IMG/VR virus record: IMGVR_UViG_3300045253_000164 | Span: 26,314 to 90,313 of that record | Origin: a virus | Lineage: Duplodnaviria > Heunggongvirae > Uroviricota > Caudoviricetes | Reading direction: 5' to 3' (one strand) | Length of the DNA: 64,000 nucleotides | Shown: piece after piece, positions 28,859 through 52,659 of the stretch | Layout: each line of letters starts with the position of its first letter | How positions within the stretch are numbered: position 1 is the first letter of the stretch | Notes under the pieces: generated by a model | Database searches by the model: none | Told to the model about the DNA's origin: nothing | What the model saw: only the letters and a program-made list of their open reading frames with translations | Made by a program: the position numbers and the translations under genes

Positions 28859-28982
28859 TTTGAGTTCAGTCCGCCTGCGAGGCTTGCGCCGCCGCAGGGC
28901 GTTATCGTCAAACTGACTTGTTTCGGCGGGTAAAGGAAAGGTCAGCGCATGTCAAGCGGGAAGTTGAAAAAAGTTTGAGGAG

Positions 28983-30671: not shown

Positions 30672-31718
30672 TCACTCCAACCCCAGGCCCTGCAGCACCC
30701 GCGCCGCCAGGTGCTTGTACAACCACTTCTCCATCGTGAGCGCGTAGGCCCGCTGCGTGATGGCGTCGTACTGATCCGGGTTGTCGCGCACCCATTGCGC
30801 GGCGTCTCCCATGCTAACGGCATCGCGGCTGTGCGCCAACCAGATCCCGTCGGGATCCGTCGGTCCCTCGTGTCCGAAGCAGCGCCGCGGCGCGCCGAAC
30901 GCGGACACCATCGACGGGACGTGATCGCTCAGCATCACGCAGCCCATGGCGAACGCCTCGACGATGCGCATGGGCACGAAGTCGACGTTGGAACAGCTGA
31001 GGGCACAGAGCGCCCGGTTGTAGGCGTCGGCCATGCCCTGATAGCTGAACACCTTGCCGAAGATCGTGCTGGCACTCTCACCCAGGTTGGAGCCGTACCA
31101 CTGGGCCGGCATCGCTTCGGCACCATCGAACCGCGCGCGCAGCTGGTTCCAGATGGTCGGGCGGGGTTCGTAGTGGGTGCCGATCTGACAGATCAGCTTG
31201 TCGCGATCGGCGCCGGGTTTGGTCAGCGGATGAATCTCGGGGTCCGCACCGAACACGAACCATTCCGCCGGACGCCCCTGGCGATCGACGGGTAGCGGCA
31301 CTTTGGCCGTGCGGCCGTTGTCGTCATGCTGGATGAAGTAGGCCTCGAAGTCCGCAGCGCGGAGTTGACTGCGGCTGTGCTGCTCGGCGTTAAAATTTTC
31401 GATTGCCAGGTGTCCCCACTTGATGCCCTCCGGCGCGGTGCCCGTGATAACCAAGTGGTCGTATTGATCAACCGTGCAGACCACGTCCGGTGACCATCCC
31501 ATGTCCGTGCGCGCCAGCTCGACGACGGTCCCAATGTCCACCGGCGCGTTGGGCAGCTCGAGATCGTTGCGGCGATACTCCGCCCACTGACTGAAGCCGT
31601 AGACCTCGGGCGAGCTCGGCCCCGCGGTCAACACCTCGTGGCCCAGTTGCTGGAACGCGCGGCGGACGAACAGCCCGACACACATCGGGCGACTCATGTA
31701 CGTACACAACACCCTCAT
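30672..31718 (-). CDS. GT-B fold glycosyltransferase (GT1/GT4-like, CgeB-like)
   Basis: Start at MRVLCTYM (internal ATG 31718, ATGA overlap). The C-terminal domain has DFVPMRIVEAFAMGCVMLSD, resembling the GT1 E-x7-E region. It is paralogous to 38689..39624. Confidence 0.55.
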   Translation of the reverse strand: MRVLCTYMSRPMCVGLFVRRAFQQLGHEVLTAGPSSPEVYGFSQWAEYRRNDLELPNAPVDIGTVVELARTDMGWSPDVVCTVDQYDHLVITGTAPEGIKWGHLAIENFNAEQHSRSQLRAADFEAYFIQHDDNGRTAKVPLPVDRQGRPAEWFVFGADPEIHPLTKPGADRDKLICQIGTHYEPRPTIWNQLRARFDGAEAMPAQWYGSNLGESASTIFGKVFSYQGMADAYNRALCALSCSNVDFVPMRIVEAFAMGCVMLSDHVPSMVSAFGAPRRCFGHEGPTDPDGIWLAHSRDAVSMGDAAQWVRDNPDQYDAITQRAYALTMEKWLYKHLAARVLQGLGLE

Positions 31719-32722
31719 CCCACTGTCCTCCCTGATCCTAACCGCCCCACGATGTCCAACAGGTACCGTGCGCGGGCTTCGCTCGTGTGATGCCGCAGGA
31801 AATGCGCGTGTCCCGCGGCCGCGATCTGCCGCGCCCGGTCCTCGCGATCCATCAACCACAGCGCCACATCTGCCACGCGCTCACTGCGCTGCACGTAGAA
31901 GCAGTGCACGCCATCTTCCGGGGCTTCTGGAATCTGGATGCGTGGCGCTTCGGCGACCTGGCACAACCCGTAGGCGAACTGTTCCCAGAAACGATTGTTA
32001 TCCCACTGCGTCACGTAGGGATGGCCGTTCCAGCTGATGCCGACCAACGCCTCCGCCATCCGGGCGTGATACTCCTCAGGAGACGGCCGTGTGCCTTTCT
32101 CCTGCCCGCGGTACAACCCGCAGTCGAGTTGCTCGCGTGTGATCTCACCGCGCCCTACAGCGGCTTGCAGCCCTTCGACGATCTGCATCCGCGGTCGCCC
32201 AGGGCCGTCGAAGCCGTGCGCGGTCGCGTGATAGAAGACGCGCAGCGCCTTCGAGGGCATCGGCGTCGGAACCCTGGACGCCGGATAGCAGAGTGGCAGC
32301 GGGTAACCCCAGTTGGCGCCAAGCGGCAGCTCCCGCTTGAAATAGGCAGCAAGCGGACGCCCGGCGCAGGCCTCGTAGAGACCCCGCTGATTGCCGACGT
32401 GGTCGCTGTAGTCGACCGCGACGATGGGCGTCGTGTCGTACTTCGGCAGCGCGCGTACGGTGTGCCGCACTTCTGCCGTGTGGATGGCGATCACGACAAG
32501 GTCGTACTCGACGCTCTCGGGCGCGGGTCGCGTCGGATAGAACAGATCCGAGTCGAGGCTGCATGCATCGCGTTCCGCCGGGTCGCCCAGGTGGTACGTG
32601 GGGTTTGCTGGCCAATCGATCACGTTGTGGTAGCCGAGCACGGAGACCAGGCCGTCGAAGAGGAAGGCGTTGCCATAATCGTGGCCATGCAGGCCGGAGC
32701 CGGCGAGGTAGAGGACTCTCAC
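31715..32722 (-). CDS. GT-B-like putative glycosyltransferase paralogue (family of 3)
   Basis: 335 aa, MRVLYLAGSG...AGHAHFLRHHTSEARARYLLD. It shares the N-terminal MR(V/I)L(Y/L)L motif and C-terminal helix with the other island paralogues. The GTG start overlaps the upstream stop. Confidence 0.35.
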   Translation of the reverse strand: MRVLYLAGSGLHGHDYGNAFLFDGLVSVLGYHNVIDWPANPTYHLGDPAERDACSLDSDLFYPTRPAPESVEYDLVVIAIHTAEVRHTVRALPKYDTTPIVAVDYSDHVGNQRGLYEACAGRPLAAYFKRELPLGANWGYPLPLCYPASRVPTPMPSKALRVFYHATAHGFDGPGRPRMQIVEGLQAAVGRGEITREQLDCGLYRGQEKGTRPSPEEYHARMAEALVGISWNGHPYVTQWDNNRFWEQFAYGLCQVAEAPRIQIPEAPEDGVHCFYVQRSERVADVALWLMDREDRARQIAAAGHAHFLRHHTSEARARYLLDIVGRLGSGRTVG

Positions 32723-32895
32723 CGCCGCACTTCCTTCCCCGGCCAGCCGCTGCCCTTCAGCACGAACGTCGTTGCCGACACCAGTCGCGTCACCTTGCCA
32801 CTACACCGCGGACAGCGGCGCAACGCGGGCTCCGTAATGCGCTGCTGGCGCTCGAAGGGGCCACAGCGTGGACAGTGGTACTCATAGGTCGGCAT
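32719..32895 (-). CDS. FmdB-family zinc-ribbon protein
   Basis: MPTYEYHCPRCGPFE...RRCPRCSG matches the FmdB motif MPxYEYxCxxCG plus a second CxxC. Start at internal ATG 32895. Confidence 0.55.
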   Translation of the reverse strand: MPTYEYHCPRCGPFERQQRITEPALRRCPRCSGKVTRLVSATTFVLKGSGWPGKEVRR

Positions 32896-33289
32896 TCGTG
32901 GTGATCTCCGCAGTGACCTCCGCCATTCGACGCCAATGTTCCGCAAGCGCCATCAGCAGCTTTCGCGCAGCAGAGTCACCGCATAGGCCAGCTGCAACGG
33001 CTTCTGCGTCGCTCGCACAGAACCGCAACACCCCCACCTGCACTTGGCAACGGGATGCTTCGTTTGGAGCCTCATTGAGTTGAGACAGAATCCACTCAAC
33101 ATCCGCTTCGTCAACGACGGTATAGATGCCGTTGTAGACGCCGGTGCCACGAACAGTCTGGATAGGGACGCCGCCACTGACCGGTTTCGCGTCCCGGAAG
33201 GGTCCCCCGATCTCCCACCGCGCACCCGGCATAATCTGGCGACACCAAGCAACAGCCTCTTCCTTCTTATTCACCCTCATGCCATCCAC
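32882..33289 (-). CDS. hypothetical protein
   Basis: 135 aa; overlaps its neighbours by a few nt. Confidence 0.35.
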   Translation of the reverse strand: MDGMRVNKKEEAVAWCRQIMPGARWEIGGPFRDAKPVSGGVPIQTVRGTGVYNGIYTVVDEADVEWILSQLNEAPNEASRCQVQVGVLRFCASDAEAVAAGLCGDSAARKLLMALAEHWRRMAEVTAEITTNADL

Positions 33290-33723
33290 TCCATCTGCCG
33301 CGCCCCGAATCCCACCGCCAGGTACAGCGCCGTCGCCGCCGTGTTCTCTGGCTTCAGGTTTACAATCACGCGGGTAATGCCCTGGGTCTTGAGCCAGTCC
33401 AACAGCAACGCAATCGCTTCGCGCATGTAGCCCCTGCGTCGCTGTTCGGGGGCCATCAAGACCTGGCCCAGCTCGATCGACGCGCCGTCGTGGTTGGAGA
33501 CGCCGAGCTGTCCGATGGCCACGCCGTCGTGCTCGACGATGAGCATCGTATCAGTGCCGCTCAAGTACTTCGCAAACCACGCTTCATGCTGTGCCATCGT
33601 CAATTCAGCATTGTGAAAGAACGCCTCACGGCTCGCGTTGCGCCAGACAAGCGTCAGCAGCAAATCGGCCTCGGTGAGGGGGCGCAGCGCGATGCGGGCA
33701 CCGAGAAGCGCGGGCGCTTTCAT
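33277..33723 (-). CDS. GNAT-family N-acetyltransferase
   Basis: IALRPLTEADLL...; motif A QRRRGYMREAI; KPENTAATALYLAVGF tail. Confidence 0.6.
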   Translation of the reverse strand: MKAPALLGARIALRPLTEADLLLTLVWRNASREAFFHNAELTMAQHEAWFAKYLSGTDTMLIVEHDGVAIGQLGVSNHDGASIELGQVLMAPEQRRRGYMREAIALLLDWLKTQGITRVIVNLKPENTAATALYLAVGFGARQMEWMA

Positions 33724-34856
33724 CGCAGCCCCCGCATCACGCGCCCGACGCGCTCCACGTCATCGAACGTCATCCCGACATGCAACGGCAACGACAGCAG
33801 TTCTGCCGCAGCACGCTCCGCACGCGGGCACCGTGCGGCACCGGCATACATCGGGTAGCTCGTGTTGCACTGATAGTGGACGCCGGGGAAAATCCCCTGC
33901 GCGTTTAGCTGTTGCAACAGCTGGTCACGGTTCAGAACGCGCACCTGATAGAGATGCCGCGACGACACACAACCGGGCGCTTGCGGGATTCGCTGCGCCC
34001 ACACCGGCAATACGGCATCGTAGATCTGACTGAGTTCTCGTCGCCGCAAATTGTCGGCCTTCAAATAGCGCAGCGCCACCAAGCCCATCGCCGCCATCAC
34101 CGCGTTGCCGTGATACTTGAAGCCGACGCGCGGCACGTCGTACTGCCAACGGTAGCCGCTCGTCGCCTGAGTCCGGCTGTAGGTGTCCTTGGTGATCCCG
34201 AGCCACGTGAGTTGGCGGCAGAGGTGATCGTGGGTTGGATCACGGAAGCAGACCATCCCACTGTCGGCCGTTGGCAGATTCTTTACCGCATGAAAACTGA
34301 ACACGGTCGCGTCTGCTTCTGACCCCACGTGCCGGCCGTTCCATTCGGTACCCGCCATGTGCGCGGCGTCGAGGATGAGCCGCAGGTTGTAGCGGTGGCA
34401 GATCGCAATGATCTCCGGCAGCTGTCCTGTGTTGCCCCCGATGCCAACGAACATCACGGCCCGGGTCCGCCGCGTGATCCGGGACTCTACCGACTCTGGA
34501 TCGAGGCACAGGTACTCATCAACATCGGCGAACACCGGTCGGAGTCGTTCGTAGAGGATCACATGGTTCGTCGACACAAACGTCAGCGGCGTCGCAATGA
34601 TCTCGTCGCCGTCCTGCCAGCCATCTTCAGACTTCAAGGTGTGCACAGCGAGGTGCAATCCGGCCGTCGCGGAGTTGACGAAGTGCGCGTGCGGCAATCC
34701 CGTGAAGGCTCTCCACGCCGCTTCGAAGCGCTGCGTTGTTTCACCGGGGCCCGTCCAACCGGATTCCAGGCACGGGCGAATGGCGTCCAGCACTTCGTCG
34801 ACGCGGTACATCGGTCGGAATAGATGCAACGGTGTGACCGAACCTGTGACGGTCAT
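33720..34856 (-). CDS. DegT/DnrJ/EryC1/StrS-family PLP-dependent sugar aminotransferase
   Basis: 378 aa; FSFHAVKNL contains the family's Schiff-base Lys motif (SFHxxK). GLHLAVHTL is also present. Confidence 0.75.
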   Translation of the reverse strand: MTVTGSVTPLHLFRPMYRVDEVLDAIRPCLESGWTGPGETTQRFEAAWRAFTGLPHAHFVNSATAGLHLAVHTLKSEDGWQDGDEIIATPLTFVSTNHVILYERLRPVFADVDEYLCLDPESVESRITRRTRAVMFVGIGGNTGQLPEIIAICHRYNLRLILDAAHMAGTEWNGRHVGSEADATVFSFHAVKNLPTADSGMVCFRDPTHDHLCRQLTWLGITKDTYSRTQATSGYRWQYDVPRVGFKYHGNAVMAAMGLVALRYLKADNLRRRELSQIYDAVLPVWAQRIPQAPGCVSSRHLYQVRVLNRDQLLQQLNAQGIFPGVHYQCNTSYPMYAGAARCPRAERAAAELLSLPLHVGMTFDDVERVGRVMRGLR

Positions 34857-35650
34857 GTCAGCACCGCTTGGTGCACGAGCACGTCGGCCATGGTCACGCC
34901 CTTGGGTGCAATCCGGACGGCACGGCCGGCAACGTCGATGTGCTCACCGTCAAGTCTGCGCGCTGGAAGGACCGGCGTAGCTGCGGAGACCTCAGTCTTG
35001 CCCGTCGCGTAGCTTTGGAAGTGCGGATGCCCGTTCGCCCCCAGGCCCAGGACGCGGCGTGTGTTGTCAGGCACCCAGTGATGATCGGAGTTGAGCAGGA
35101 TACTCCAGATGGCATAGCCCTGTTGCAGCGCCCAAATACAGGGCTCCCACGCCCCGTAGCCATAGCCGAAGCGCAACGCCCCAACACAGCCCCGTTCGCG
35201 GAACAGGTCGACACGGAAGCCGAACGAGAAGCTGTCCAACGTGACGCCGAGATGATCAACCGACGGCAGGCTGGGGTTGGCCTGCTCATCCCACACGGAG
35301 TAGGCGCACCAGGTCGCCAGAGCCACGCGCCAGCCGTGTGCCAGCTCCAGCTGATGCTCCCAGCCCGGCTCACGCATCGCAAAATCGTCGTGGACCACCA
35401 TGCACCAGTCCCACTGCTGGGCAACGGCGTAGTCCAGGCACCATTGCCAGAGGTCGCACTCGTCCTCGAAACGGCCGACCTGCTGCACCACCTCGACGCC
35501 CTCAGGAATCGGCGGCAACTCCCCAGCGGTGATCCCGTTCAGCAAAGCAATCACCGGGGTATCGCGTTGAGAGAAGTGCCGACAACTCCACCAGGCACGC
35601 TCCTGCATGGCGTGACGGGTGCAAGTAGGGATGATGAGGCCGACCTTCAT
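34853..35650 (-). CDS. putative GT-A fold glycosyltransferase
   Basis: 265 aa; MKVGLIIPTCTRH resembles the GT2 N-terminus; VHDDFAM is a DxD-like motif. Weak. Confidence 0.3.
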   Translation of the reverse strand: MKVGLIIPTCTRHAMQERAWWSCRHFSQRDTPVIALLNGITAGELPPIPEGVEVVQQVGRFEDECDLWQWCLDYAVAQQWDWCMVVHDDFAMREPGWEHQLELAHGWRVALATWCAYSVWDEQANPSLPSVDHLGVTLDSFSFGFRVDLFRERGCVGALRFGYGYGAWEPCIWALQQGYAIWSILLNSDHHWVPDNTRRVLGLGANGHPHFQSYATGKTEVSAATPVLPARRLDGEHIDVAGRAVRIAPKGVTMADVLVHQAVLT

Positions 35651-37093
35651 CTACCCTTCCACCATACGATCGCCGACCGCCAGCATATCCACGCCCAACT
35701 GCCGCGCCGTACCTTCCGCGTCGGTCACGGTGTTTGCCATCGCCTGCCCGTGCCCGTTGAAGCTGGTGTTGAGCAGCATCGGCACACCCGTTGCGCAACC
35801 GAACGCCGCGAGGATGTGACCGAGCACAGACGACTCGTCGACGAGCTGCACACGCGCCGACCCGTCGGCGTGTACAGCGGCCGGCGCCAGCCGCCGCATC
35901 TCCTCGGTGGCCTGGCAGATCGTGGTCATGAACTCGTAGGCGCCGGGATCGATCAGGTCGAAGTAACGTCGGGCGTGTCGACGCAGCACGACCGGCGCCA
36001 CCGGCCGCCACGGCGCGCGCTGCTTCATCTCGTTCAGCCGGCCCTTGATGGCGAGCGATCGCGGATCCGCCAAAAGCGAGCGATGACCCAGCGCTCTTGG
36101 TCCCGACTCAGCGCGGCCGTTCACCAGCGCGACGATCTGCCCCTCGAGCAGCGCGTCGACGACGCGATCAACATTGGGTGTGCCTTCCAATCCCGGCTCC
36201 GTCCAGCCGGCAAACGCCACCTGCTCCACGGAGTACCGTCGGCGTGGCTCTCCCAGGATCCGATGCAGGACATACAACGCTGCCCCGATGGACAGGCCGC
36301 CATCGTCGCACGCAGGAGGTACCCATGCAGCGGGAACATGACCGGAGCGGAGCAATGCATGCACGGCAATCCCGTTGAGCGCGCAGCCGCCGGCGATCAC
36401 CACCGGACGCCCTGCAGGCACGAGCTCGTGGAACGCGTCGATCGTCTGGGCCTCGAGCGTCGCCACGCGCGATCGGACGGCGGGGTCCATTCCCGTTCGA
36501 GCGGTGAAATCCTCCGCGGGAATACCGAGCAGCGCCATGACGGTGCCTTCTTGAAACTGCCCGCCGCAGATCTGGTGGGAGGCGTCGTTCCAGGCGCCCC
36601 CGATACCAGGGCAGGGATGCCAGCGGATGCCGAAGGTTTCGCCGTTGCCATTGCCCACTGCGCAGGTGATCACCTTGAGCCCTTCGGGCGTCTTGTAGGC
36701 GTCGCCGCCGCCGTCCAGCGCGAGAATCGAAGCCTGGTCGTAAGGACTCGTGTAGTAGGCATACGCGGCGTGGGCCGTGTGATGAGGAATGCCGAAGGCG
36801 CGGCGATCTCCACCGAGCACGCAGCTCGAGCGGTCATCGAACTGCATCAGGTCGTCCCAGCCGTTGCGCGTAATGCCGAACATCCCCGATACGCCGGCCA
36901 TATAGGTGATCTGCTCCCGGGTGATCCCGATCAGTCGGCAGGCGTCGTCGACCTGCTCCATCGGTGCTAGGGTATCGTGCCGGATGCGGGTGAAGCGCTC
37001 GCGCTCGAAGTGGACGATCTTGCCGTCGCCGACAATGGCGAAGCTGCCGTCGTGGCCCTGGTAAGCGCCCAGCACGTAGATGGGGTCAGCCAT
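35651..37093 (-). CDS. NodU/CmcH-family O-carbamoyltransferase
   Basis: 480 aa; IPHHTAHAAYAYYTSPY, ESGPRALGHRSLLADPR and MLLNTSFNGHGQ match the conserved carbamoyltransferase N- and C-domain motifs. Confidence 0.75.
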   Translation of the reverse strand: MADPIYVLGAYQGHDGSFAIVGDGKIVHFERERFTRIRHDTLAPMEQVDDACRLIGITREQITYMAGVSGMFGITRNGWDDLMQFDDRSSCVLGGDRRAFGIPHHTAHAAYAYYTSPYDQASILALDGGGDAYKTPEGLKVITCAVGNGNGETFGIRWHPCPGIGGAWNDASHQICGGQFQEGTVMALLGIPAEDFTARTGMDPAVRSRVATLEAQTIDAFHELVPAGRPVVIAGGCALNGIAVHALLRSGHVPAAWVPPACDDGGLSIGAALYVLHRILGEPRRRYSVEQVAFAGWTEPGLEGTPNVDRVVDALLEGQIVALVNGRAESGPRALGHRSLLADPRSLAIKGRLNEMKQRAPWRPVAPVVLRRHARRYFDLIDPGAYEFMTTICQATEEMRRLAPAAVHADGSARVQLVDESSVLGHILAAFGCATGVPMLLNTSFNGHGQAMANTVTDAEGTARQLGVDMLAVGDRMVEG

Positions 37094-37096
37094 CCG

Positions 37097-37369
37097 CTAG
37101 ACTTCTTCCCATCCGCACAACCACAGTGTGTCGAGATTATCGCTGCGGCCGGCCAGTACCACATCCACCATGACATCAATGTCCCTGATGCGCAGGCCGA
37201 ACAAAACATTTGCCGTCTGAACGCAGAGATGAAGCGCGGCTTCCGCGGATCGCGACAAATTGCCACCGACAGATACCGCTGCCTCAATCAGTGACCACGG
37301 ATTCAACCCTCGATAGGGATTCACGCGGTTGCTCAGTCGGTGATCGATGCGAATCCAATTCTGGTTCAT
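37097..37369 (-). CDS. hypothetical protein
   Basis: 90 aa from internal ATG 37369 (MNQNWIRIDH...), with ATGA overlap to the upstream stop. Confidence 0.35.
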   Translation of the reverse strand: MNQNWIRIDHRLSNRVNPYRGLNPWSLIEAAVSVGGNLSRSAEAALHLCVQTANVLFGLRIRDIDVMVDVVLAGRSDNLDTLWLCGWEEV

Positions 37370-38376
37370 GCCAACAACTCCACCAGCCGCGCCACATACA
37401 GCGCCCTGGCCTCGCTGGTGTGCCACTGCGCAAACCAAGCGTGTCCAGCCTTGGCGATGTCCAACGCCCGCTGCGGCTCGTGAATCAACGATTCCACTGC
37501 GGCGCCCACCGCCTCTGGAGTGAGCGCGTACACACAATGCACGCCGTCCACGAACGGCTTCGGAATCTGGATCCTCGGGGATTCGATCACCTGGCACACA
37601 GCATAGGCAAATTGCTCCCAGACACGATTGCAGTCCCAGTTCTGGACGTAGGGGAAGCCGTTCCACGAAATCCCCACCAGCGCCTCGGTCATCTGGGTGT
37701 GGTAGTCGACCGGCAGCAGGTTGGTGGCGCGGCTCGTGTGGAGACCGACGTTCAACGTGTCGCCGTACGGCATCCTCCGGCGCAGGTCATCGACGATTTG
37801 CCGCCGCACGGCGCCGGCGCCGTCGAGCGTGTCGCCATGGCCGCTCGCATGGTAGAAAACCCGTACTAGCTTGTGCACCGGCGCCTGAGGGATACGACTA
37901 GCCGGATACATCAGCGGCAGCGGCAACGCCCAGGTCGCGCCGATCGGGAGCTCGCGCTTGAAGTGCGCGGTCAGCGGCCGTCCCGCGAGCGAGCGGTACC
38001 AGTCGCCGTTGTTGACACCGAAGGCGTCGCCCAGATCGCAGGCAATCACCGGCTTGGTGCGAGGCCACGCGCGCAGCAACGGCTCATGCGCGCGCATGTG
38101 ATGGTCACCGGGTTGCGTGGCGATGCAGAGCACGTCACAGCCATCCATGACGTCCATCGCCGTATGCCCCTTGCGCGGCCAGTCCTGGTCGGAGTCGTAA
38201 GGGCACTCTCGGCACACCGGACACTCCGCCGTCTCACGTGGTCGGTGCAGGGAATCGGACTCCGGCACCGCAAACACGTTGTCGATGCCGAGCGTGGCGT
38301 AGAAGCCACCCAGCAGGAAGTCCGCGCCCAGGTCGTGAGAGTGGGCGCGCGGGGACATGAGGTAGAGGACGCGCAT
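37366..38376 (-). CDS. GT-B-like putative glycosyltransferase paralogue (family of 3)
   Basis: 336 aa MRVLYLMSPRAHSHDLG...AGHAWFAQWHTSEARALYVARL; paralogue of 31715..32722 and 44661..45644. Confidence 0.35.
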   Translation of the reverse strand: MRVLYLMSPRAHSHDLGADFLLGGFYATLGIDNVFAVPESDSLHRPRETAECPVCRECPYDSDQDWPRKGHTAMDVMDGCDVLCIATQPGDHHMRAHEPLLRAWPRTKPVIACDLGDAFGVNNGDWYRSLAGRPLTAHFKRELPIGATWALPLPLMYPASRIPQAPVHKLVRVFYHASGHGDTLDGAGAVRRQIVDDLRRRMPYGDTLNVGLHTSRATNLLPVDYHTQMTEALVGISWNGFPYVQNWDCNRVWEQFAYAVCQVIESPRIQIPKPFVDGVHCVYALTPEAVGAAVESLIHEPQRALDIAKAGHAWFAQWHTSEARALYVARLVELLA

Positions 38377-38377
38377 T

Positions 38378-38692
38378 CTACTTCGTCAGCTCAGCCAATC
38401 GCTCGCGCAGACCTGGGAGTCGTGCGGCCTGCTTCTCGACAAATTCAATCTGCGCGGTCACTACACACATTTCGCACCAGGCCACTGGACGACACCCATG
38501 AGCAAACTCCAACGCTGACAACTGTTCGCCGCTCCACCACTTTGTGCCTGGTCGCGTCTTGCAATTCCCGCAAAGTGCCTGTCCGTCAGGTTTTCTGAAG
38601 TAGGCCTCCTGGGGAATGTACGACCCCACATCAACCACGTAACCCGCCTGCGCGCCGCTGGCCGTTATCTGCCCCACCGAGTAATCGCTCAC
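38378..38692 (-). CDS. small Cys-containing hypothetical protein
   Basis: ~104 aa from GTG 38692 (GTGA overlap with the upstream stop); CGNC...CEMC. The 5' part of the tracked ORF overlaps the next gene and is rejected. Confidence 0.25.
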   Translation of the reverse strand: MSDYSVGQITASGAQAGYVVDVGSYIPQEAYFRKPDGQALCGNCKTRPGTKWWSGEQLSALEFAHGCRPVAWCEMCVVTAQIEFVEKQAARLPGLRERLAELTK

Positions 38693-39624
38693 CGCAGCCC
38701 CATCCCTTCCAGCACCCGCCGCAACCGATGCTGATACGAGTCGCGCCCGCGCACCAACTCGTACGCCCGCTGCGCCATGCCGCCGTCGCCTTCCCGTCGG
38801 AGTCGACGCACGGTGTCGATGAGCCACTCGGGATCCGGCATCCCTTCGCCGCCTGGTCCTGGGATGGGATCGAAGCCGATGAAGTGCTCGCCATCGTTGA
38901 ACAGCTTCAGCGTCGACGGGTTCCTGTCGGCAATCACCACGCATCCCATGGCCATCGCCTCGAACACCCGCGTCGTCACGAAGTCCAGCGTAGAGCAACA
39001 ATAGGTGGCGAGGCTGTTCTGATAGGCGCAGGCGTACAGCGGTCCCCAGACATCACCGAAGAAGGTATGGATATCGGGGGCGCGCTCACGCACGGTGTGC
39101 CAGATGTGCTGGCGTGCCTCGCGGGCGCTGGCCAGTTGGACCAGGTCGTATTCGCGGGAGGCGCCGGAGAATGACGCGCAGTACGGCGGGATCCAGTGCT
39201 CGTCGGCGTCGAACGCCTTGGGCAGCCACTGCACGCCGGCGTCTGCGCCGTTGCACATGATCTCCGCGTAGCGATGCGGCGTTAGGCCCCGCGACCATTC
39301 CATCGCGGCGCCTTCGGAGTCGATGTGCGCCCAGGGAATGTCGGGCAGGTCCCCGTCGGCCCAGCGCAGGCCTTCGCCGCCACTGGCAATGATCGCGCAG
39401 TCGAGAGGTTCAGTGAAGTTCAGCACCGCAATTGTCTCGCGCCACGGGACCGGCATGCTCGTATTGAGAAACGCCTGCGGCTCGCGCCCCCGCGTCCCCC
39501 ACGGCTCCTGGTCGCGCCACGGGCCAACGGTAACGACCTCATGACCGAGCTGCCGCAGCGCCCGAAGGTAGTAGTATGGCAACCCGCAGCGCCGGTGCCA
39601 CGTGCCGAGGAGCAGGATTCTCAT
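38689..39624 (-). CDS. GT-B fold glycosyltransferase (GT1/GT4-like, CgeB-like)
   Basis: Start at MRILLLGTWHRRCG (ATG 39624). The C-terminal DFVTTRVFEAMAMGCVVIAD parallels that of 30672..31718. Confidence 0.55.
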   Translation of the reverse strand: MRILLLGTWHRRCGLPYYYLRALRQLGHEVVTVGPWRDQEPWGTRGREPQAFLNTSMPVPWRETIAVLNFTEPLDCAIIASGGEGLRWADGDLPDIPWAHIDSEGAAMEWSRGLTPHRYAEIMCNGADAGVQWLPKAFDADEHWIPPYCASFSGASREYDLVQLASAREARQHIWHTVRERAPDIHTFFGDVWGPLYACAYQNSLATYCCSTLDFVTTRVFEAMAMGCVVIADRNPSTLKLFNDGEHFIGFDPIPGPGGEGMPDPEWLIDTVRRLRREGDGGMAQRAYELVRGRDSYQHRLRRVLEGMGLR

Positions 39625-39781
39625 GTCGTTGGATACCTGTGATACATTCGGCACATCATGTGGGCAGGTAATAACCCACTAACGCCGCCCCACATTGGCT
39701 GCCACGGCCACACAAACCAGCCGCACAAATAGCAAACATGGTTGTGGTAATAGTTCGCGCCGTCCGACCATCCCTGCGATC

Positions 39782-40705
39782 TCACTCCCGCACCTCGGCA
39801 CTGCTGATCCCATCGCTGAGCCCGTGGTAGGCCTTGCTGACCGCCCAGCAATCCACGCCAACGAAGTAGTGCGCGCGGGCCAGCATCTCGAAAAACGCCG
39901 CATCGCCCACGCCGTGTCGATTGTCCTCGCCCCAGTACTCGACATTGTTGGGGCCGTGGACGCGGCCATACTCGACCCACACCAAACACGCCCCCAGACA
40001 GTTGACGCGGTGCATCACCTGGTTGTGATCACAGCGTCCATCGACGCCGTAGCGCATCAACCCAGGACGCCAGAAGCCCTCTTCAACCCAGGATGCGTGC
40101 GTGTCGGGATCCACCCCGTCGTCGTACAGCGCGCGAAAACTCGCGCCGCCGTTCAACGCGGCGCGCGGGCCGGTCGGCAGCGGGAAGTCCGCCGTCAGCG
40201 GCTGCGGAGGCCCGCTGTTCTGCCACTGGTTGCGGGAGCCATCGGCGCCAAACTGCACTGATCGCAGCCGCCCGTACACGACGTGTTCTTGAGGGTGCGC
40301 ATCGAGATACTCGGCCCGCAGTCGGACACTGTGCGGGTGCAGGACGTCATCGTCGCAGAGATACGTCAGGTACCGCTCGTCACGCCGCAGATGATTCAGC
40401 CCGATGTTGATGGTCCTCGAGTAGGGGATCGTCGCCTTGCGCTCGGCCATCGTGCGATCCGGTCCCATCCACCAGGTCACGCGATCGGTGCTCACCGCGA
40501 CGCCGCCGGCGACGTGCTGCTCGGAGTCCCACGCGGTGAGGCCCTGGGCGTCACGAATGGCGGCGCGCGCCTCAGGATTGCAACCGTCGTCGAGCACAAG
40601 TAACCGCCAGCGGTCGCAGTCCTGCGCCAGCACCGAGGCGATCGCCGCCGCCACCATGCGCGGCCGGTTGTAGGTGGTCAGCAGCACCAGGGTGTCGCGG
40701 CTCAT
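39782..40705 (-). CDS. family-2 (GT-A) glycosyltransferase
   Basis: LVLLTTYNRPRMVAAAIASVLAQDCDRWRLLVLDDGCNPEA plus YLCDDDVL (DxD). Start at MSRDT (ATG 40705, ATGA overlap). Confidence 0.7.
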   Translation of the reverse strand: MSRDTLVLLTTYNRPRMVAAAIASVLAQDCDRWRLLVLDDGCNPEARAAIRDAQGLTAWDSEQHVAGGVAVSTDRVTWWMGPDRTMAERKATIPYSRTINIGLNHLRRDERYLTYLCDDDVLHPHSVRLRAEYLDAHPQEHVVYGRLRSVQFGADGSRNQWQNSGPPQPLTADFPLPTGPRAALNGGASFRALYDDGVDPDTHASWVEEGFWRPGLMRYGVDGRCDHNQVMHRVNCLGACLVWVEYGRVHGPNNVEYWGEDNRHGVGDAAFFEMLARAHYFVGVDCWAVSKAYHGLSDGISSAEVRE

Positions 40706-41646
40706 TCCAGCCTCCGCACCATCGTCAGCCCGAAACCCCACGGGAGCGTCAGCACCTCGAACTCCGGGCGCTGCCGCAGCTCGTTCACCACGATCGCCAC
40801 GCCAGTGTCGGCGTTCGTGGCCGCGCCGTTCTCAAAATAGTCGTGCAGCAGACAGAGTCCGTTGACGCGAACGCGGGGCAGGTAGCGCTCGACGTCAGCC
40901 CGCACCTGGGCCTCGCTGTGATCACCATCGATCCAGAGCAGATCGAGCGTCTCGGGCGGCTCAAAGTCGTTGGAGTTGATCACATGCAGCGCCCACCATT
41001 GGCTCAGCTTGGCCTGGTCGACGTAGCACGCGGCCTTCTCGGCAGCCTCTGCGTCGCACTCCAGCGAATGCAGGAGTCCACCTGTCTCGCGCATGGCGTA
41101 GAGCAACGGCATCGTCGAGATGCCTTCACGTACGCCGATCTCCAACACCACTGGCGGTCGTACAGGTCCCCGAGATTCGGGGTCGGGCCAGTTGACCCAC
41201 TTCGCAATGCTGTAGAGCACCAGCAAGTGCGGCCGTGAGTCGTAGAAGTCGCCGGCCTCCGTCCACCAGGCAGTGTCCCGGCTCAGCGCCACGAGCTCGG
41301 CGTCGCCGAACGGGCCGCGCCAGGGAGCGTTGACGCCGCCCCCCGATGGTCGCGGACTCCCGGGGCGTATGGCGCGTTGGAGGTCCACGCGTTCCGCCGC
41401 CAGCGAGAAATCCAGACGTCGTGGCGCGGTCAACGGCGGCGGTAGAATCGTTGCCCGCGTCGGTTGCAGCGTCGGCTGCGCCAAGCTCACCGGCGCCGAG
41501 CGTGGCGCAGGTGTCTGGGCAACGCTAGTCGCGAAGCGCAGGAAGAAGCTGAGGCCTGTGCGGGCGATCAGCTCTACCTGGTCCGGTGCGAAGCGATCGG
41601 CGAAGGTCGATCGCATCGCGGATTCGAATTGCTCGGCGGCGCTCAT
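40702..41646 (-). CDS. class I SAM-dependent methyltransferase (TylF/MycF-like, probable O-methyltransferase)
   Basis: LEIGVREGISTMPLL (motif I), LLWIDGDHSEAQV...LLHDYF. Confidence 0.6.
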   Translation of the reverse strand: MSAAEQFESAMRSTFADRFAPDQVELIARTGLSFFLRFATSVAQTPAPRSAPVSLAQPTLQPTRATILPPPLTAPRRLDFSLAAERVDLQRAIRPGSPRPSGGGVNAPWRGPFGDAELVALSRDTAWWTEAGDFYDSRPHLLVLYSIAKWVNWPDPESRGPVRPPVVLEIGVREGISTMPLLYAMRETGGLLHSLECDAEAAEKAACYVDQAKLSQWWALHVINSNDFEPPETLDLLWIDGDHSEAQVRADVERYLPRVRVNGLCLLHDYFENGAATNADTGVAIVVNELRQRPEFEVLTLPWGFGLTMVRRLE

Positions 41647-41873
41647 CGCGGATGTCCAGCGTCACAGGCCCACGACGTGGAGCTGCCGACCTCGAAGGCG
41701 TCGTGGGGCCACCACGAGGCACGAATTGGTACGACGGTGATCGATGTACCGTGCGTCAACTCCCTCGCGAGGAAATAGCGCGCGCGGGACACAACGCAGA
41801 AGTCTGCTCCTGGATGCGCAGCCAGCGCGGCACAGAGCCGTTCGCGGAACACTTCGTCGGTCATCTGGTCCAT
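41643..41873 (-). CDS. hypothetical protein
   Basis: 76 aa, translationally coupled between the two MTase paralogues. Confidence 0.35.
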   Translation of the reverse strand: MDQMTDEVFRERLCAALAAHPGADFCVVSRARYFLARELTHGTSITVVPIRASWWPHDAFEVGSSTSWACDAGHPR

Positions 41874-41876
41874 GGG

Positions 41877-42674
41877 CTACAGCTCCACAATCCGGTCGTC
41901 CGGCTCGAAGGCCGGCGACAACACCCGCACCAACGTCAGGCCGAATGAAAACGGTAGTGTCAAGATCTCATAGCACCCCGTCTGCCGCAGCTGTTCCACG
42001 GCGGCGCTGACGTAGCTCGGGAACGGCGGCTGAATCGGCGGATCGCACGGCCAGGGCTTGGAGTAGTAGTCGTGCAGCGCAATGAGCCCTCCGGGCCGCA
42101 CCTGCGGCACGAAGCGCTCGACGTCCTTGCGCACCTGGTCGAGGCCGTGATCGCCGTCGATCAGCAGGAAGTCCAGCGGCCGCCCCAGCGTTGCGCAGTC
42201 GAAGTCGTCGGAGCGCTGGATGCGCAGGTCCCACCACGGCGTCAGCTGGGCCCGCTCGATGACGTCAGCCGCGGCACGCGCCCAGTCCGGATCACACTCC
42301 AGTGACACCAAGCGCCCATTGGCTTCGCGCATCGCGTGCAGCAGGTTCAACGTGCTGACGCCATGACGCACACCAATCTCCAAGCAGAGCGGTGGTCGTA
42401 GCGGCCGCGGCGCGCGGGGGTCGGGCCAATTGATGTTCCTGGCCAGCGCGTAAAGGATCGGCCCATGCGCACGCACATCGAACCAGTCGTCGACGCTCTT
42501 GCCATCAGGGCCGGTGTTGATGAACGCGCGGGTGTCGCGGCTCAGCGCCAGTAGCATAGCGTCATCCCAGGTGGCGCTGGTGACACTGGCGGACGCAGGG
42601 GGGACCGCTGCGGGCACCGCCACCGATGATGGCGGTGTCCCGCAGCGGAGACGATAGAGGGCGTCGAGGTCCAC
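41877..42674 (-). CDS. class I SAM-dependent methyltransferase (paralogue of 40702..41646)
   Basis: CLEIGVRHGVSTLNLL, FLLIDGDHGLDQV...ALHDYY. Confidence 0.6.
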   Translation of the reverse strand: MDLDALYRLRCGTPPSSVAVPAAVPPASASVTSATWDDAMLLALSRDTRAFINTGPDGKSVDDWFDVRAHGPILYALARNINWPDPRAPRPLRPPLCLEIGVRHGVSTLNLLHAMREANGRLVSLECDPDWARAAADVIERAQLTPWWDLRIQRSDDFDCATLGRPLDFLLIDGDHGLDQVRKDVERFVPQVRPGGLIALHDYYSKPWPCDPPIQPPFPSYVSAAVEQLRQTGCYEILTLPFSFGLTLVRVLSPAFEPDDRIVEL

Positions 42675-42681
42675 GGCTTAT

Positions 42682-43032
42682 TCAGACCGTCCAGATTTCC
42701 ACGTCCACCTGCGTCGCCGCGGTGATGGGTAGCGTGATGATGGACGGGCGCGACGGCGTCGGTCCCTGCTGAGGCACCGGCATTTTGTTCTGTGGGGTCC
42801 ATGTCTTGCCGTCGGGTGTCTTGACGATCACGTTCATTTCGCTCGCGCTGCTGGCCTTGATGACCTGATACTGCGCGACCGCGGACAGCGGGTTCAGCAC
42901 GGCGAGTGTCGTCGTGTCCATCGCTACCCACGAGAACGTCGTGCCCGAAGGGAGATCACGGCGGCTGCCGTCCGACATGACCGCGACCGCGCGGACGCTG
43001 ACGACCTGACCGAGTTGCAAAAGGGTGCTCAT
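42682..43032 (-). CDS. bacterial Ig-like (Big_2-like) domain protein
   Basis: 116 aa; LQLGQVVSVRAVAVMSDGSRRDLPSGTTFSWVAMDTTTLAVLNPLSAVAQYQVIKASSASEMNVIVKTPDGKTW fits the Big_2 pattern. Confidence 0.45.
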   Translation of the reverse strand: MSTLLQLGQVVSVRAVAVMSDGSRRDLPSGTTFSWVAMDTTTLAVLNPLSAVAQYQVIKASSASEMNVIVKTPDGKTWTPQNKMPVPQQGPTPSRPSIITLPITAATQVDVEIWTV

Positions 43033-43035
43033 GAC

Positions 43036-43428
43036 TTACTCCTTCTCCCGCAGCAAGCGGGGCTGTAGTTGCGTGATTCGAGACGCGTGCCATTGACCGC
43101 GGCGCTGACGTTCCGCCATGAAGGCGTCGGCAACGTCGAACGCGGCGATCACGATCAGCTCGCTGGCGCGCTCGGCTCCGACCGCCTGTTTCGCAGCGGT
43201 CGCAAGCTCCGGATCAGTAGCCATGCGTGCCAGCAGCACCATGGCGCACTCGTCGCGGAGCGCAGTGTCGGGGTCGTGGCCGTTGAGAACGGTTCCGGTG
43301 GTAGGGCCTATGCGTTCCATCCTGTCCTTCCTACTCGCGCACCTGCAGGTCGGTCCGATGGCCGTGTGCGTGGTAACAGTCGGAATCGAGCCATCACTCG
43401 CGCCTGCTCGGATCACTTCGGTGTCCAT
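43036..43428 (-). CDS. hypothetical protein
   Basis: Tracked ORF 43036..43542; plausible starts at ATG 43428 or 43320; C-terminal helical region. Confidence 0.3.
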   Translation of the reverse strand: MDTEVIRAGASDGSIPTVTTHTAIGPTCRCASRKDRMERIGPTTGTVLNGHDPDTALRDECAMVLLARMATDPELATAAKQAVGAERASELIVIAAFDVADAFMAERQRRGQWHASRITQLQPRLLREKE

Positions 43429-44338
43429 ACGGATGCCCGTATCGCTTGACCACCACGACGTCCGGGACGCTGTGAAAGGGACCGAGGCCGGCGAGCTCCA
43501 GGCGATAGAACCAGCCAGCGTCAGGACAGTCGAAGCGCTCACCAGGCAACCACGATTCCGAAAACGGCGCGTCGTCTATTTCTTCAAGTTGCCGGATGCG
43601 TCCATGCTCTTCATACCGAAAGATTTCCCGCGTTCGCGTTTCTGGCCATTGCGGAATACTCATCGGCAATCCGGCCAAGCCGCCATAGATGAACCCGTCG
43701 GGACCTGTATGCTCAAGCATGTTCGGTACACGCCGCACCATCGGCATCCCGTGGTCACAGCGGTTGGCGATGCGCGCCACGGGTTCGGCGGAGTAGAAGC
43801 TGTTGCGGTCATGCTTGCACTTGCCAGCGCCCTGAAGGAACGACGGCAAGCTGGGTCGTACCCCAAATTCGCCACAGTCAATCCCCTCAGGCAACGAATG
43901 CAGTCCCATTGCTGGCATGGGCGACTTACAGCTTTCCAGCCGCCCGTAAACCACATTCACCTCGGGATGCTCGATCAAGTACCGCACCCGGACTTCGATG
44001 CTGCCCAGCGTAAGAAAATCATCGTCAGGTAAATAGACCACGAAGTCCCCGTGCACGCACGCCATCGCCGTGTTGATGCAGATGGCGCAGCGCTGACCGT
44101 GCTGGCGCTCCTCCGGCGTCGGCGGCGGTCCAGGCTGGACGCACAACAGGCTGCGACCCTCGGTGAAGCACGAGCCGTACTCGGCGAGCACGTCGTGCAC
44201 AGCGTGATCGCTCCAATCGTCGGCGACAATGACCTCGATGTTCGGCCAGGTCTGCGCGAGGATGCTGTCCAGCGCATCACGGATCAACGTTGGCCGATTG
44301 TACGAGCTGAGTACGACACTGACGAGCGGCTCGTTCAT
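43394..44338 (-). CDS. family-2 (GT-A) glycosyltransferase
   Basis: VSVVLSSYNRPTLIRDALDSILAQTWPNIEVIVADDWSD plus VVYLPDDDFL (DxD). Confidence 0.7.
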   Translation of the reverse strand: MNEPLVSVVLSSYNRPTLIRDALDSILAQTWPNIEVIVADDWSDHAVHDVLAEYGSCFTEGRSLLCVQPGPPPTPEERQHGQRCAICINTAMACVHGDFVVYLPDDDFLTLGSIEVRVRYLIEHPEVNVVYGRLESCKSPMPAMGLHSLPEGIDCGEFGVRPSLPSFLQGAGKCKHDRNSFYSAEPVARIANRCDHGMPMVRRVPNMLEHTGPDGFIYGGLAGLPMSIPQWPETRTREIFRYEEHGRIRQLEEIDDAPFSESWLPGERFDCPDAGWFYRLELAGLGPFHSVPDVVVVKRYGHPYGHRSDPSRRE

Positions 44339-44664
44339 GGCTTCTGCCCGTTCGGCACTTCCCGCACCCAGCCGAGCCCTTGCTGCGCCTGCGTGCGGTA
44401 GAAATCCGCGCGGCCCATGGCGCGAGCGAATTGCTCATCGCTCAGCGGGTAGGGCTGCATCCACTCGCGGCCCTCGGCATCGGCCACCGCTGCCTCGGCC
44501 ACCGCCATGCACCACTGCACCAACTCGCCGGGCTTGGTCGTCAGCGCTGCGGTGTTCGTCGCGGCGGCGCGCAGCAAGTCGAGCACGATACGAAAGCGCA
44601 GGTCGAGCTGGAGGCCCTCGTCGCGGTCGTTGCTGAGGGGACTGCGGAAGTACGGCGTGCTCAT
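44335..44664 (-). CDS. hypothetical protein
   Basis: ~110 aa from internal ATG 44664 (MSTPYF...), ATGA overlap; the upstream part of the tracked ORF is rejected. Confidence 0.35.
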   Translation of the reverse strand: MSTPYFRSPLSNDRDEGLQLDLRFRIVLDLLRAAATNTAALTTKPGELVQWCMAVAEAAVADAEGREWMQPYPLSDEQFARAMGRADFYRTQAQQGLGWVREVPNGQKP

Positions 44665-45644
44665 GCGGCCTCCGGGAGTGTACTGTGAATGGCGCACCAG
44701 ACTGTCTCGGCACGGTGGCGCGTGGTGTGGTGACGGAGCCACCAGGCTTGCGCAACCTCCGCCAAGGCATGGGCGGCTATTGAGTCTGCCAGGAGCTGTT
44801 GCACAATGCGGAGAGCCTTGTCTGCGGTGCGAAACAGCGGAGTGACAATGCCCGACAGGCCCTGAATCCCGCAGGGAGCACCCGCGCGTGGTTGGTGACC
44901 ATCCTCCAACACCGGGCAGCACCCATCCGCGATGATCTCGAGGTGCCGGTTGGTGTGGTAACCAAGCCCCGCCGGCGACACGGCAATCAACGCAGACCGA
45001 TTCGCGGCGTGATTCTCCGCAACGTCCCACCGGGAACCGTCGGGCGGCATGACCACGCCCAGCTCGCGCAACCCTTCGCGCAACTGAGCTCGCGTCGAGT
45101 CCGGCGTGCACCAGTCCCACAGATGGGCTGAGTACACGACAGACGGCTCACGCTCGCCCACGGGCACCTGCCGTGAGGCCGGATAGCCGAAGGGCAGGGA
45201 CGTCGCCCAGTTCGCGCCCACCGGCAGTTCGCGCTTGAAGTACGCCACCGGCGCGGCGCCGAGGCACTCCGTGAACAGCGGCTGCGTGTTGTGCGGGTGG
45301 TCTTCAGCATCGTACGCGACGAGGCGATCGCGGGAGGCGTTCAGCAGCCCGGCACGCGCCCAGCTCCGCAGTTGCGACCGTACCTCGCCACGCACCGTCG
45401 GTACGATCACGGCAGCGAACGTCCCGTCGCGCAGGGCTTGCGCCACACGCTCGGCGCTCCAGTCGTGCTGGGGTCGATGCAGATCGCAGTCGAACGTCGC
45501 CGGAGCACCCTCGGACAGATGCAGCGACGGCTTCGGCGGCCAGTCGATCACGTGACCATCACCGAGCAGCTCGCAGAAGCCGTCGTACAGATAGTCCGGG
45601 CCGTAGTCCGGCGACGGATCGGTAAGAAACAGAATATCAGGCAT
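44661..45644 (-). CDS. GT-B-like putative glycosyltransferase paralogue (family of 3)
   Basis: Start at MPDILFLTDPSPDYG (ATG 45644). It shares the N-terminal and C-terminal (AQAWWLRHHTTRHRAE) signatures with 31715..32722 and 37366..38376. First gene of the island operon. Confidence 0.35.
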   Translation of the reverse strand: MPDILFLTDPSPDYGPDYLYDGFCELLGDGHVIDWPPKPSLHLSEGAPATFDCDLHRPQHDWSAERVAQALRDGTFAAVIVPTVRGEVRSQLRSWARAGLLNASRDRLVAYDAEDHPHNTQPLFTECLGAAPVAYFKRELPVGANWATSLPFGYPASRQVPVGEREPSVVYSAHLWDWCTPDSTRAQLREGLRELGVVMPPDGSRWDVAENHAANRSALIAVSPAGLGYHTNRHLEIIADGCCPVLEDGHQPRAGAPCGIQGLSGIVTPLFRTADKALRIVQQLLADSIAAHALAEVAQAWWLRHHTTRHRAETVWCAIHSTLPEAA

Positions 45645-52621: not shown

Positions 52622-52659
52622 GGGTGTTCGTGCTGACGCGGCTGACTGCATGGGGCGCG

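Follow-up and report, generated by a model that had tools for sequence, protein, structure and literature searches.

The window, meaning here the whole stretch of DNA analysed (64,000 nucleotides of a tailed phage of the Caudoviricetes; positions 26,314 to 90,313 of IMG/VR record IMGVR_UViG_3300045253_000164), contains an operon-like cassette of roughly 20 kb (window ~30.6–51.2 kb) in which same-strand genes are tightly packed with overlapping stop and start codons. All features with coordinates given below are on the minus strand. Five of the genes encode GT-B glycosyltransferases matching PF13524 and fall into two subtypes, A (A1, 30672..31718, 348 aa; A2, 38689..39624, 311 aa; both with ATG starts) and B (B1, 31715..32722, 335 aa, GTG start; B2, 37366..38376, 336 aa; B3, 44661..45644, 327 aa), each gene representing its own orthologue group (A1-type, B1-type and so on). 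The five open reading frames are found exactly where the initial annotation had placed them, and all have a coding signature (GC3 0.75–0.82, GC2 0.47–0.54) in a genome of 64% GC. The ATG of A1 overlaps the stop codon of B1 (ATGA).

Gene content of the cassette

The remaining cassette genes include two that encode NAD-dependent sugar SDRs. One is an epimerase/4,6-dehydratase (48983..49990; Pfam Epimerase, E 1.5e-55) with NCBIfam matches to GalE, LegB and RmlB that are all below cut-off, and the second (50208..51179; Pfam Epimerase, E 9e-44; PHROG 540, nucleotide-sugar epimerase) resembles UDP-xylose synthase and the ArnA C-terminal domain, its best NCBIfam match also being below cut-off. A DegT/DnrJ/EryC1-type nucleotide-sugar aminotransferase (33720..34856; PF01041, E 3.8e-82) is 61% identical to its counterparts in two related metagenomic contigs, L034 and L035, and its nearest NCBIfam models, PseC and ArnB, both score below their cut-offs. 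Since none of these sugar enzymes reaches a curated NCBIfam cut-off, no name can be given to the sugar. A GNAT N-acetyltransferase gene (33277..33723; Pfam Acetyltransf_3, E 1.8e-18) adjoins the aminotransferase gene here and in both contigs, and a NodU/CmcH-type carbamoyltransferase (35651..37093; Carbam_trans_C, E 6e-49; Carbam_trans_N, E 7.7e-19) is likewise encoded in all three cassettes.

Two family 2 GT-A glycosyltransferases are encoded at 39782..40741 (PF00535, E 6.3e-11; counterparts in L034–L038 are 46–56% identical) and at 43394..44338 (PF00535, E 1.3e-15), the latter directly downstream of B3 in a gene pair that recurs in L037/L038. Two paralogous SAM-dependent methyltransferases of the Methyltransf_24/O-methyltransferase-like type lie between them (40702..41646, PF13578, E 1.5e-17; 41877..42674, PF13578, E 2.1e-20, the second with a 62% identical counterpart in L035). 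A conserved 265-aa protein (34853..35650; 55% identical counterparts in L034 and L035) has no Pfam, PHROG or NCBIfam match, and by eye it looks GT-A-like, with a DDF motif. At the 3′ end of the cassette is a conserved Cys-rich 243-aa protein without a family match (29560..30291), counterparts of which (40–48% identical) follow the A1/B1-type genes in L034, L035, L036 and L043.

One reading of this gene set, which we consider possible though unlikely, is that the transferases, being soluble or peripheral, remodel the host envelope, acting on lipid- or wall-linked host glycans (O-antigen, capsule, teichoic acid or glycolipid precursors) through a host initiating enzyme, flippase and ligase, so that the altered surface would, for example, exclude superinfecting phages or release progeny from receptors. 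No clear transmembrane segment is seen among the cassette enzymes scanned, and no phosphoglycosyltransferase, flippase, ABC transporter, polymerase or ligase family was detected by Pfam in the window proteins scanned; no initiating transferase, GtrA/B-like gene or membrane protein was found in the cassette, although the host could supply these functions. Nor was an integrase seen among the scanned window proteins. Known serotype-conversion modules of phages are small, whereas this cassette spans ~20 kb, and its conserved position beside the head genes (see below) also argues against an envelope target.

Family, fold and ancestry of the five glycosyltransferases

Within subtypes, blastp similarity is far above chance, and the five genes are paralogues in two subtypes, as initially annotated: A1 and A2 share 26% identity over 353 columns (E 7e-21), B1 and B2 44% (E 1e-82), B1 and B3 32% (E 2e-33), and B2 and B3 28% (E 5e-17). 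Between subtypes A and B the blastp similarity is not significant; the two family profiles nevertheless align over their full length (hhalign probability 96.5%, E 1e-9, 275 columns). The motif proposed for subtype A is present (VEAFAMGCV in A1, FEAMAMGCV in A2), and the terminal motifs proposed for subtype B hold for B1 and B2 but not for B3, which starts MPDILFL and ends ...AQAWWLRHHTT.

All five proteins score above the whole-protein PF13524 gathering threshold of 25 bits (A1 38.2, A2 51.2, B1 43.3, B2 25.8 and B3 26.4 bits), B2 and B3 only narrowly, and the match is confined to their C-terminal 80–140 residues. No PHROG family or NCBIfam model was matched by any of the five, querying PDB sequences with the profiles of both families gave nothing meaningful, and a search of the phage literature for PF13524/Glyco_trans_1_2 found nothing. 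Both subtypes nonetheless have the GT-B fold that had been proposed for them, with two Rossmann-like alpha/beta domains, a cleft between them and a C-terminal helical tail, and they can be superposed on GT-B enzymes of solved structure. The five proteins are glycosyltransferases of the GT-B superfamily, their transfer activity being predicted from fold and family.

Residues of the donor site are shared by all five orthologue groups and the N-terminal, acceptor-side loops differ among them. An Arg in the C-terminal domain's first helix (R186 in A1) is conserved throughout the groups, and a C-terminal-domain segment R-x-x-E-x-x-A-x-G (from R251 in A1), which we take to be the hallmark of PF13524, occurs in the consensus of 5/5 groups and in 5/5 window proteins. 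In an E-x7-E motif whose register was set by sequence only, all five proteins keep the second Glu, position -8 is Asp in subtype A and not acidic in subtype B, and B1 and B2 have an Asp at -6 relative to the second Glu. Retention of the Arg and the R-x-x-E-x-x-A-x-G segment bears on the suggestion that A- and B-type proteins pair as heterodimers (B1 with A1, A2 with B2) in which not every member is catalytic, rather than working as five separate enzymes. GtfA/GtfB and Gap/Asp provide precedents in which a GT-B-fold paralogue acts as a substrate-binding chaperone; such an arrangement here would be improbable given the shared donor-site residues, the carbamoyltransferase gene lying between the B1- and A1-type genes of L035, and the recovered stretch of L043, where a B1-type gene occurs and an A1-type gene does not.

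Retaining GT-B enzymes of the GT4 type (BshA, PimA, GlgM, PglH/WlaC) are 10–16% identical to the phage proteins, and where they carry an N-terminal Gly-rich loop, subtype B has H-x-H-D-Y-G and subtype A h-R-R-C; the five genes appear best not filed as GT4. Among viral proteins, B1 is structurally most similar to the CgeB-like proteins of giant viruses, namely Satyrvirus, Yasminevirus, Tupanvirus and Hokovirus (TM ~0.6, identity 9–15%).

The GT-B fold is also common to phage DNA glycosylation enzymes (the T4 alpha- and beta-glucosyltransferases and 5mYOX- or ThyS-linked transferases), and sequential transferases and epimerases are possible in such clusters too. In this reading the phage would evade restriction by building an oligosaccharide on hydroxymethylated pyrimidines in its own DNA. 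This seems very unlikely here: GT4-like enzymes score above DNA glucosyltransferases, the ~40 window proteins scanned with Pfam include no ThyS-like hydroxymethylase, 5-methylpyrimidine dioxygenase (TET/JBP) or C5-methyltransferase, and the methyltransferases there belong to the N6/N4 type. An aminotransferase, a GNAT protein, O-methyltransferases, a carbamoyltransferase and ~8 transferases also far exceed any described DNA sugar pathway, and the cassette adjoins head genes, not replication genes.

The five homologous genes, all within 15 kb of one genome, had suggested repeated duplication inside the phage, with copies perhaps varying under diversifying selection. This is contradicted by their in-genome identities of only 26–44%, by five distinct orthologue clades, one per copy, and by the closer positional orthologues that every copy has in other metagenomic phage contigs. 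Those of A1, for example, are in L035 (49%), L036 (43%) and L034 (37%), B2 groups with P0032, P0034, P0036, P0038 and others, and B3 and its 34 homologues form a separate clade. Because of these clades and positional orthologues the duplications are placed outside this phage, and recent duplication within it is scarcely credible. With respect to copy number in relatives, all five types are found in at least two other long contigs, one of 62.6 kb (P0020, P0034, P0046, P0076 and L035:12408) and one of 53.2 kb (P0009, P0014, P0054, P0094 and L034:10975). The subfamilies are small, with 25–44 proteins each among 5.8e9. The five genes appear to be old, non-redundant CgeB/YkvP-like glycosyltransferases that diverged anciently.

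Sequence searches identified no cultured relative and no host. Neither a nucleotide search with the 30–46 kb region nor tblastn with the capsid protein matched any of 50,697 phage records, and tblastn with A2 and B1 against the same records (E 1e-3) also gave no match, the transferases of Che8-, Corndog- and Myrna-type phages included. The terminase has remote T4-like and cyanophage matches only (26–29% identity), and a tRNA scan found none. A pattern scan of IMG/VR and GTDB genomes for the B family, which used short conserved peptides and can miss relatives, yielded no confirmed relative and hence neither a prophage nor a host. Two matches were set aside: Pseudomonas phage Y5, an unverified record with the best aminotransferase match, is irrelevant because it has only that gene and one SDR in common with the window, and a 575-aa relative (P0042) stands alone in a bacterial contig and is uninformative.

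Candidate acceptors in the head-gene neighbourhood

The cassette lies directly upstream of the protease, scaffold and capsid genes in the window and in L034, L035 and L043. A terminator-like hairpin (28828..28861; 15-bp stem followed by a T-run) is situated where the cassette gives way to the head protease gene. Terminator-like sites are in total no more numerous than in shuffled sequence, and this one is by far the strongest; since it splits the cassette from the head genes, co-transcription with the late genes is not assured.

Two head proteins have features that coincide with the cassette. The first is a 163-aa protein in a decoration-like position of the head module (26142..26633), with a Ser-rich C-terminal tail containing N-x-S; this tail (LTNNSLLPSSAIS) or an equivalent is present in 4/4 cassette-bearing contigs and in 0 of 29 cassette-less relatives. 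The second is the major capsid protein (24875..26122; Pfam Phage_capsid_4), in which a 16-aa insertion (PVTGGTVSAAGANQGV; residues 301–316, window 25175–25222) is again present in 4/4 cassette-bearing contigs and missing from all 33 of 33 capsid relatives that lack the cassette, among them L001 (53% identity). None of the five genes lies within 10 kb of the capsid gene in the 33 IMG/VR capsid relatives, and the capsid C-terminus has no extension specific to cassette-bearing contigs. We infer that the tail of the 163-aa protein is a candidate glycan acceptor and the capsid insertion a second one; the four cassette-bearing contigs may constitute a single clade, so that both correlations could reflect one event.

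Proposed pathway and comparison with known systems

The interpretation we favour, while holding it tentatively and at a little short of an even chance, is of a conserved glycan cassette of five GT-B enzymes and their partners in an uncultivated tailed-phage lineage, with a virion protein as the likeliest acceptor. The two SDRs, the DegT-type aminotransferase and the GNAT protein would convert host nucleotide sugars to an N-acetylated 4-amino-deoxy sugar donor, a chemistry suggested by the enzyme families. The five GT-B and two to three GT-A enzymes would then act in order, each adding one defined residue or linkage, as the five separately conserved groups, with the same donor-site residues and different acceptor-side loops, suggest. 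The two methyltransferases and the NodU-type carbamoyltransferase would probably tailor the glycan. With soluble, cytoplasmic proteins throughout, the glycan would most likely be transferred to a virion protein, at the Ser-rich N-x-S tail of the 163-aa head protein and/or the 16-aa capsid loop, to give a glycan-coated particle; genome position, co-occurrence and analogy point to this last step. A more specific and rather more doubtful proposal is that phages of ~60–90 kb make a complex methylated, carbamoylated amino-sugar oligosaccharide wholly with their own soluble enzymes and attach it to the head, at the conserved C-terminal tail of the decoration-like protein and/or the inserted capsid loop. 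Such a glycan coat would match giant-virus fibril glycans in pathway complexity, would be the first such case outside the actinobacteriophages and would make CgeB-like GT-B enzymes protein glycosyltransferases.

Three systems offer parallels. Bacillus subtilis CgeB is similar in size (317 aa, compared with 311–348 aa here) and has the same GT-B layout of two domains followed by a C-terminal helical tail. It is the name-giving member of PF13524 and a putative O-glycosyltransferase for Thr of CgeA, a self-assembling shell protein (PMC13577073), and this proposed acceptor parallels a capsid. The activity of CgeB itself is weakly documented, however, and the genes described here differ in being carried by phages, with five in each genome, and in making up small subfamilies of their own.

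Virion glycosylation has reportedly been demonstrated by experiment only in some mycobacteriophages, where it is said to shield particles from antibodies, and is reportedly rare elsewhere. Glycans are placed on the C-termini of mycobacteriophage capsid and tail-tube proteins in PMC12619734, which cites Freeman et al. 2023 (Cell Host Microbe). O-glycosylation there and the system proposed here have phage-encoded glycosyltransferases and methyltransferases in common, and the C-terminal glycans have a counterpart in the Ser-rich C-terminal tail; the enzymes have no detectable homology, however, and the cassette here is much larger (~8–9 transferases with donor synthesis and tailoring), with glycosylation as its predicted role.

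The glycan clusters of giant viruses (Mimiviridae and chloroviruses), which serve fibrils and capsids, contain a dehydratase, an aminotransferase, an N-acetyltransferase, several transferases and methyltransferases, and share the principle of a pathway that the virus encodes itself and runs independently of the host, although these viruses infect eukaryotes, the present system belongs to a tailed phage of ~90 kb, and the structural similarity is modest.

If the favoured interpretation is true, an unrelated environmental lineage has a 20-kb pathway with 8–9 transferases beside its head genes and devotes about a fifth of its genome to a self-made glycan, with concrete acceptor candidates open to test. 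Even with the host envelope or DNA as its target, the cassette would rank, to our knowledge, among the largest phage-borne glycan pathways. The five small, well-folding and uncharacterised CgeB-like subfamilies could help to define the function of PF13524.

Five glycosyltransferase genes in a tailed-phage genome

The window is a segment of a tailed-phage genome containing genes for the large terminase (37–1908), tape measure (15620–20299), tail tube (21505–22188), capsid protein (24875–26122), a 163-aa head protein (26142–26633, leftwards), a DUF6582 scaffold-like protein (26646–28028) and a protease (27845–28822). A leftwards gene in the tail region (5916–11816) encodes a 1966-aa protein with long C-terminal poly-Gly/Ala/Ser tracts (e.g. 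GGGGGGAGGG) that is presumably a fibre. There are three N6/N4-type DNA methyltransferase genes (1909–3414 and 55651–56469, leftwards; 46470–47534, rightwards), the first of which appears by eye to be a ParB-like fusion. A 507-aa protein (57719–59242, leftwards) matches dockerin type I at its N-terminus (E = 1.5e-6), which is unusual in a phage.

The five GT-B-like open reading frames recognized in the initial annotation are all present and all lie on the minus strand: A1 (30672–31718; 348 aa) and A2 (38689–39624; 311 aa) of subtype A, and B1 (31715–32722; 335 aa, with a GTG start), B2 (37366–38376; 336 aa) and B3 (44661–45644; 327 aa) of subtype B. Each shows the coding signature typical of this 64% GC sequence (GC3 0.75–0.82). 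The motif EA(F/M)AMGCV ascribed to subtype A is found as described, and the start and end motifs ascribed to subtype B fit B1 and B2; B3 departs from both, beginning MPDILFL and ending ...AQAWWLRHHTT. Pairwise blastp comparison of the five proteins matches A1 with A2 (26% identity, E = 7e-21), B1 with B2 (44%, E = 1e-82), B1 with B3 (32%, E = 2e-33) and B2 with B3 (28%, E = 5e-17), with no significant match between any A and any B protein; the A and B family profiles nonetheless align full-length using hhalign (probability 96.5%, E = 1e-9, 275 columns). All five pass the gathering score of Pfam PF13524 (Glyco_trans_1_2, CgeB/YkvP-like), B2 and B3 by a small margin, and none matches a PHROG or NCBIfam family. 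Comparison of the family profiles with the PDB reveals no sequence-level relative of either subtype. The five genes are new small subfamilies inside this known Pfam family.

With 42 sequences aligned for the B type and 25 for the A type, AlphaFold2 gives confident models of both B1 (pLDDT 95.1, pTM 0.92) and A2 (pLDDT 92.4, pTM 0.90). These confirm the predicted GT-B fold of both subtypes, including subtype B, for which a departure from a glycosyltransferase fold had been named as the point on which the assignment could fail. All five orthologue groups retain two features of the C-terminal domain, an arginine in its first helix and an R-x-x-E-x-x-A-x-G segment, which by position probably correspond to the region where GT4-like enzymes bind the nucleotide sugar. 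The subtypes differ in an N-terminal loop (H-x-H-D-Y-G in B, h-R-R-C in A), which would fit the use of different acceptors. Because A-type and B-type genes are often adjacent, their products could pair as non-catalytic partners in the manner of GtfA/GtfB, but this reading is not favoured, since all five groups retain the same donor-site residues. An arrangement of one enzyme for one linkage is plausible for the five proteins.

Organization and conservation of the sugar cassette

The five genes are contained within a cassette situated immediately upstream of the head module and on the same strand, with tightly packed genes whose stop and start codons overlap. In order of transcription it begins with two NAD-dependent sugar dehydratase/epimerase genes (50208–51179 then 48983–49990), and is broken up by the DNA methyltransferase gene at 46470–47534, the only one transcribed rightwards. 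B3 is followed by a GT2 gene, a 116-aa ORF and two Methyltransf_24 genes; then a GT2 gene, A2, a small Cys-containing ORF and B2; then a NodU-type carbamoyltransferase and a conserved 265-aa protein; then a DegT-type aminotransferase, a GNAT and a 135-aa ORF; and finally B1, A1, a 126-aa ORF and a conserved Cys-rich 243-aa protein. The latter (29560–30291, leftwards) has no family match and is also the last cassette gene in the related contigs L034, L035, L036 and L043. Small Cys-x2-Cys ORFs are interspersed with the GT-B genes, as at 38378–38701 (leftwards) between A2 and B2; contig L035 has a Zn_ribbon_8 ORF of dissimilar sequence (9828–10004) ahead of its B1-type gene. Directly upstream of the sugar-nucleotide genes is an SPFH/Band-7 protein gene (51207–52688, leftwards) with a lipoprotein-like signal (…LGLSGC) and a match to PHROG 200 'lipoprotein'.

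A near-identical gene order adjoining the protease, scaffold and capsid genes is present in L034 and L035/L040 and partially in L043, with variants in L036–L038 and L044. In 33 IMG/VR contigs that encode related capsid proteins, by contrast, all five GT-B genes are missing from the 10 kb around the capsid gene, and A2, B1 and the capsid protein have no homologue detectable by tblastn in cultured phages (50,697 phage records). The cassette is a conserved, self-contained 20-kb glycan gene set in a tailed phage. Between the cassette and the protease gene, directly upstream of the latter, is a very strong terminator-like hairpin (28828–28861, leftwards; 15-bp stem and T-run). It would set the cassette and head transcription units apart, so that co-transcription with the head genes is not assured.

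The enzyme families, folds, conservation and synteny are established; family knowledge further suggests a pathway in which the SDR enzymes, aminotransferase and GNAT would prepare the donor, an N-acetylated 4-amino-deoxy sugar. Sequential attachment of residues would fall to the five GT-B enzymes together with two to three GT-A enzymes, and the methyltransferases and carbamoyltransferase would modify the product. The best NCBIfam models for the sugar enzymes are PseC, ArnB and UDP-xylose-synthase-like, all below cut-off, and the sugar therefore cannot be named. The cassette enzymes scanned contain no convincing transmembrane segment, and among the window proteins scanned with Pfam there is neither an initiating phosphoglycosyltransferase nor a flippase, polymerase or ligase, which points to cytoplasmic assembly on a soluble or host-provided acceptor.

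Age of the gene set and its wider relatives

Searches of 5.8 billion proteins identify 44 B1/B2-type, 25 A2-type and 34 B3-type relatives, all metagenomic, with the same long contigs recurring in the three lists; both the 62.6-kb L035 and the 53.2-kb L034 carry one member of each of the five types. Each window gene is nearer to its positional counterpart on other contigs than to its paralogue: A2 shares 73% identity with L035:4712 and 26% with A1, and B2 shares 48% with L035:5772 and 41.5% with L035:10001. A neighbor-joining tree of 101 sequences splits into five clades, and every clade contains a single window gene. These relationships argue that the expansion is ancient and was passed on as a set, and not, as initially suggested, that it arose by repeated duplication inside this phage; nothing points to the diversifying variation among copies that was also proposed.

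When 1.84 billion cluster representatives are searched with a profile, 1636 relatives score E ≤ 1e-3, of which 179 reach E ≤ 1e-30. Ranking behind the ~320-aa phage-type proteins are many ~600-aa proteins (P0131–P0228) with a C-terminal B-like GT-B module. An N-terminal SAM-methyltransferase domain occurs in some of them and a second GT1 domain in one group; they have no other Pfam annotation. The 575-aa relative P0042 is located on a bacterial-looking contig.

Candidate glycan acceptors

Glycosylation of phage DNA is disfavoured as the role of the cassette: Pfam scans identify no hydroxymethylase, TET-like dioxygenase or C5-methyltransferase among the proteins scanned in the window, which covers 64 kb of a 90,313-bp contig, and the enzyme set is far larger than those of described DNA sugar pathways. 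We favour the hypothesis that virion proteins are the acceptors, because of the conserved position beside the head module, features of two head proteins, and analogy. The capsid protein has a 16-aa Gly/Ser/Ala-rich insertion (PVTGGTVSAAGANQGV; residues 301–316, window 25175–25222). All four contigs that combine the cassette with a capsid gene (the window, L034, L035 and L043) share it, and 33 capsid relatives without the cassette all lack it. One of the latter, L001, is as near to the window (53% identity) as is the cassette-bearing L034. The 163-aa head protein has a Ser/Ala/Pro-rich C-terminal tail of ~13 residues with a conserved N-x-S (C-terminal segment …TNNSLLPSSAIS; tails LTNNSLLPSSAIS, LTNGSNPPSSASSAR, MTNNSTVPSAATAAR and MTNGSAVPSASSAAQ), which is limited to the four cassette-bearing contigs, relatives stopping earlier. 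These associations are correlational and may all stem from one clade, and the virion acceptor is accordingly put forward as a hypothesis.

CgeB, the eponymous PF13524 protein, is proposed to O-glycosylate a threonine of CgeA, a shell-forming spore-crust protein (PMC13577073), and in mycobacteriophages capsid and tail-tube subunits carry glycans at their C-terminal ends, according to work cited in PMC12619734. Among viral structures, B1 is best matched by CgeB-like proteins of giant viruses. The cassette, together with its candidate head-protein acceptors, would be a new variation on virus-encoded glycosylation that merits experimental test.
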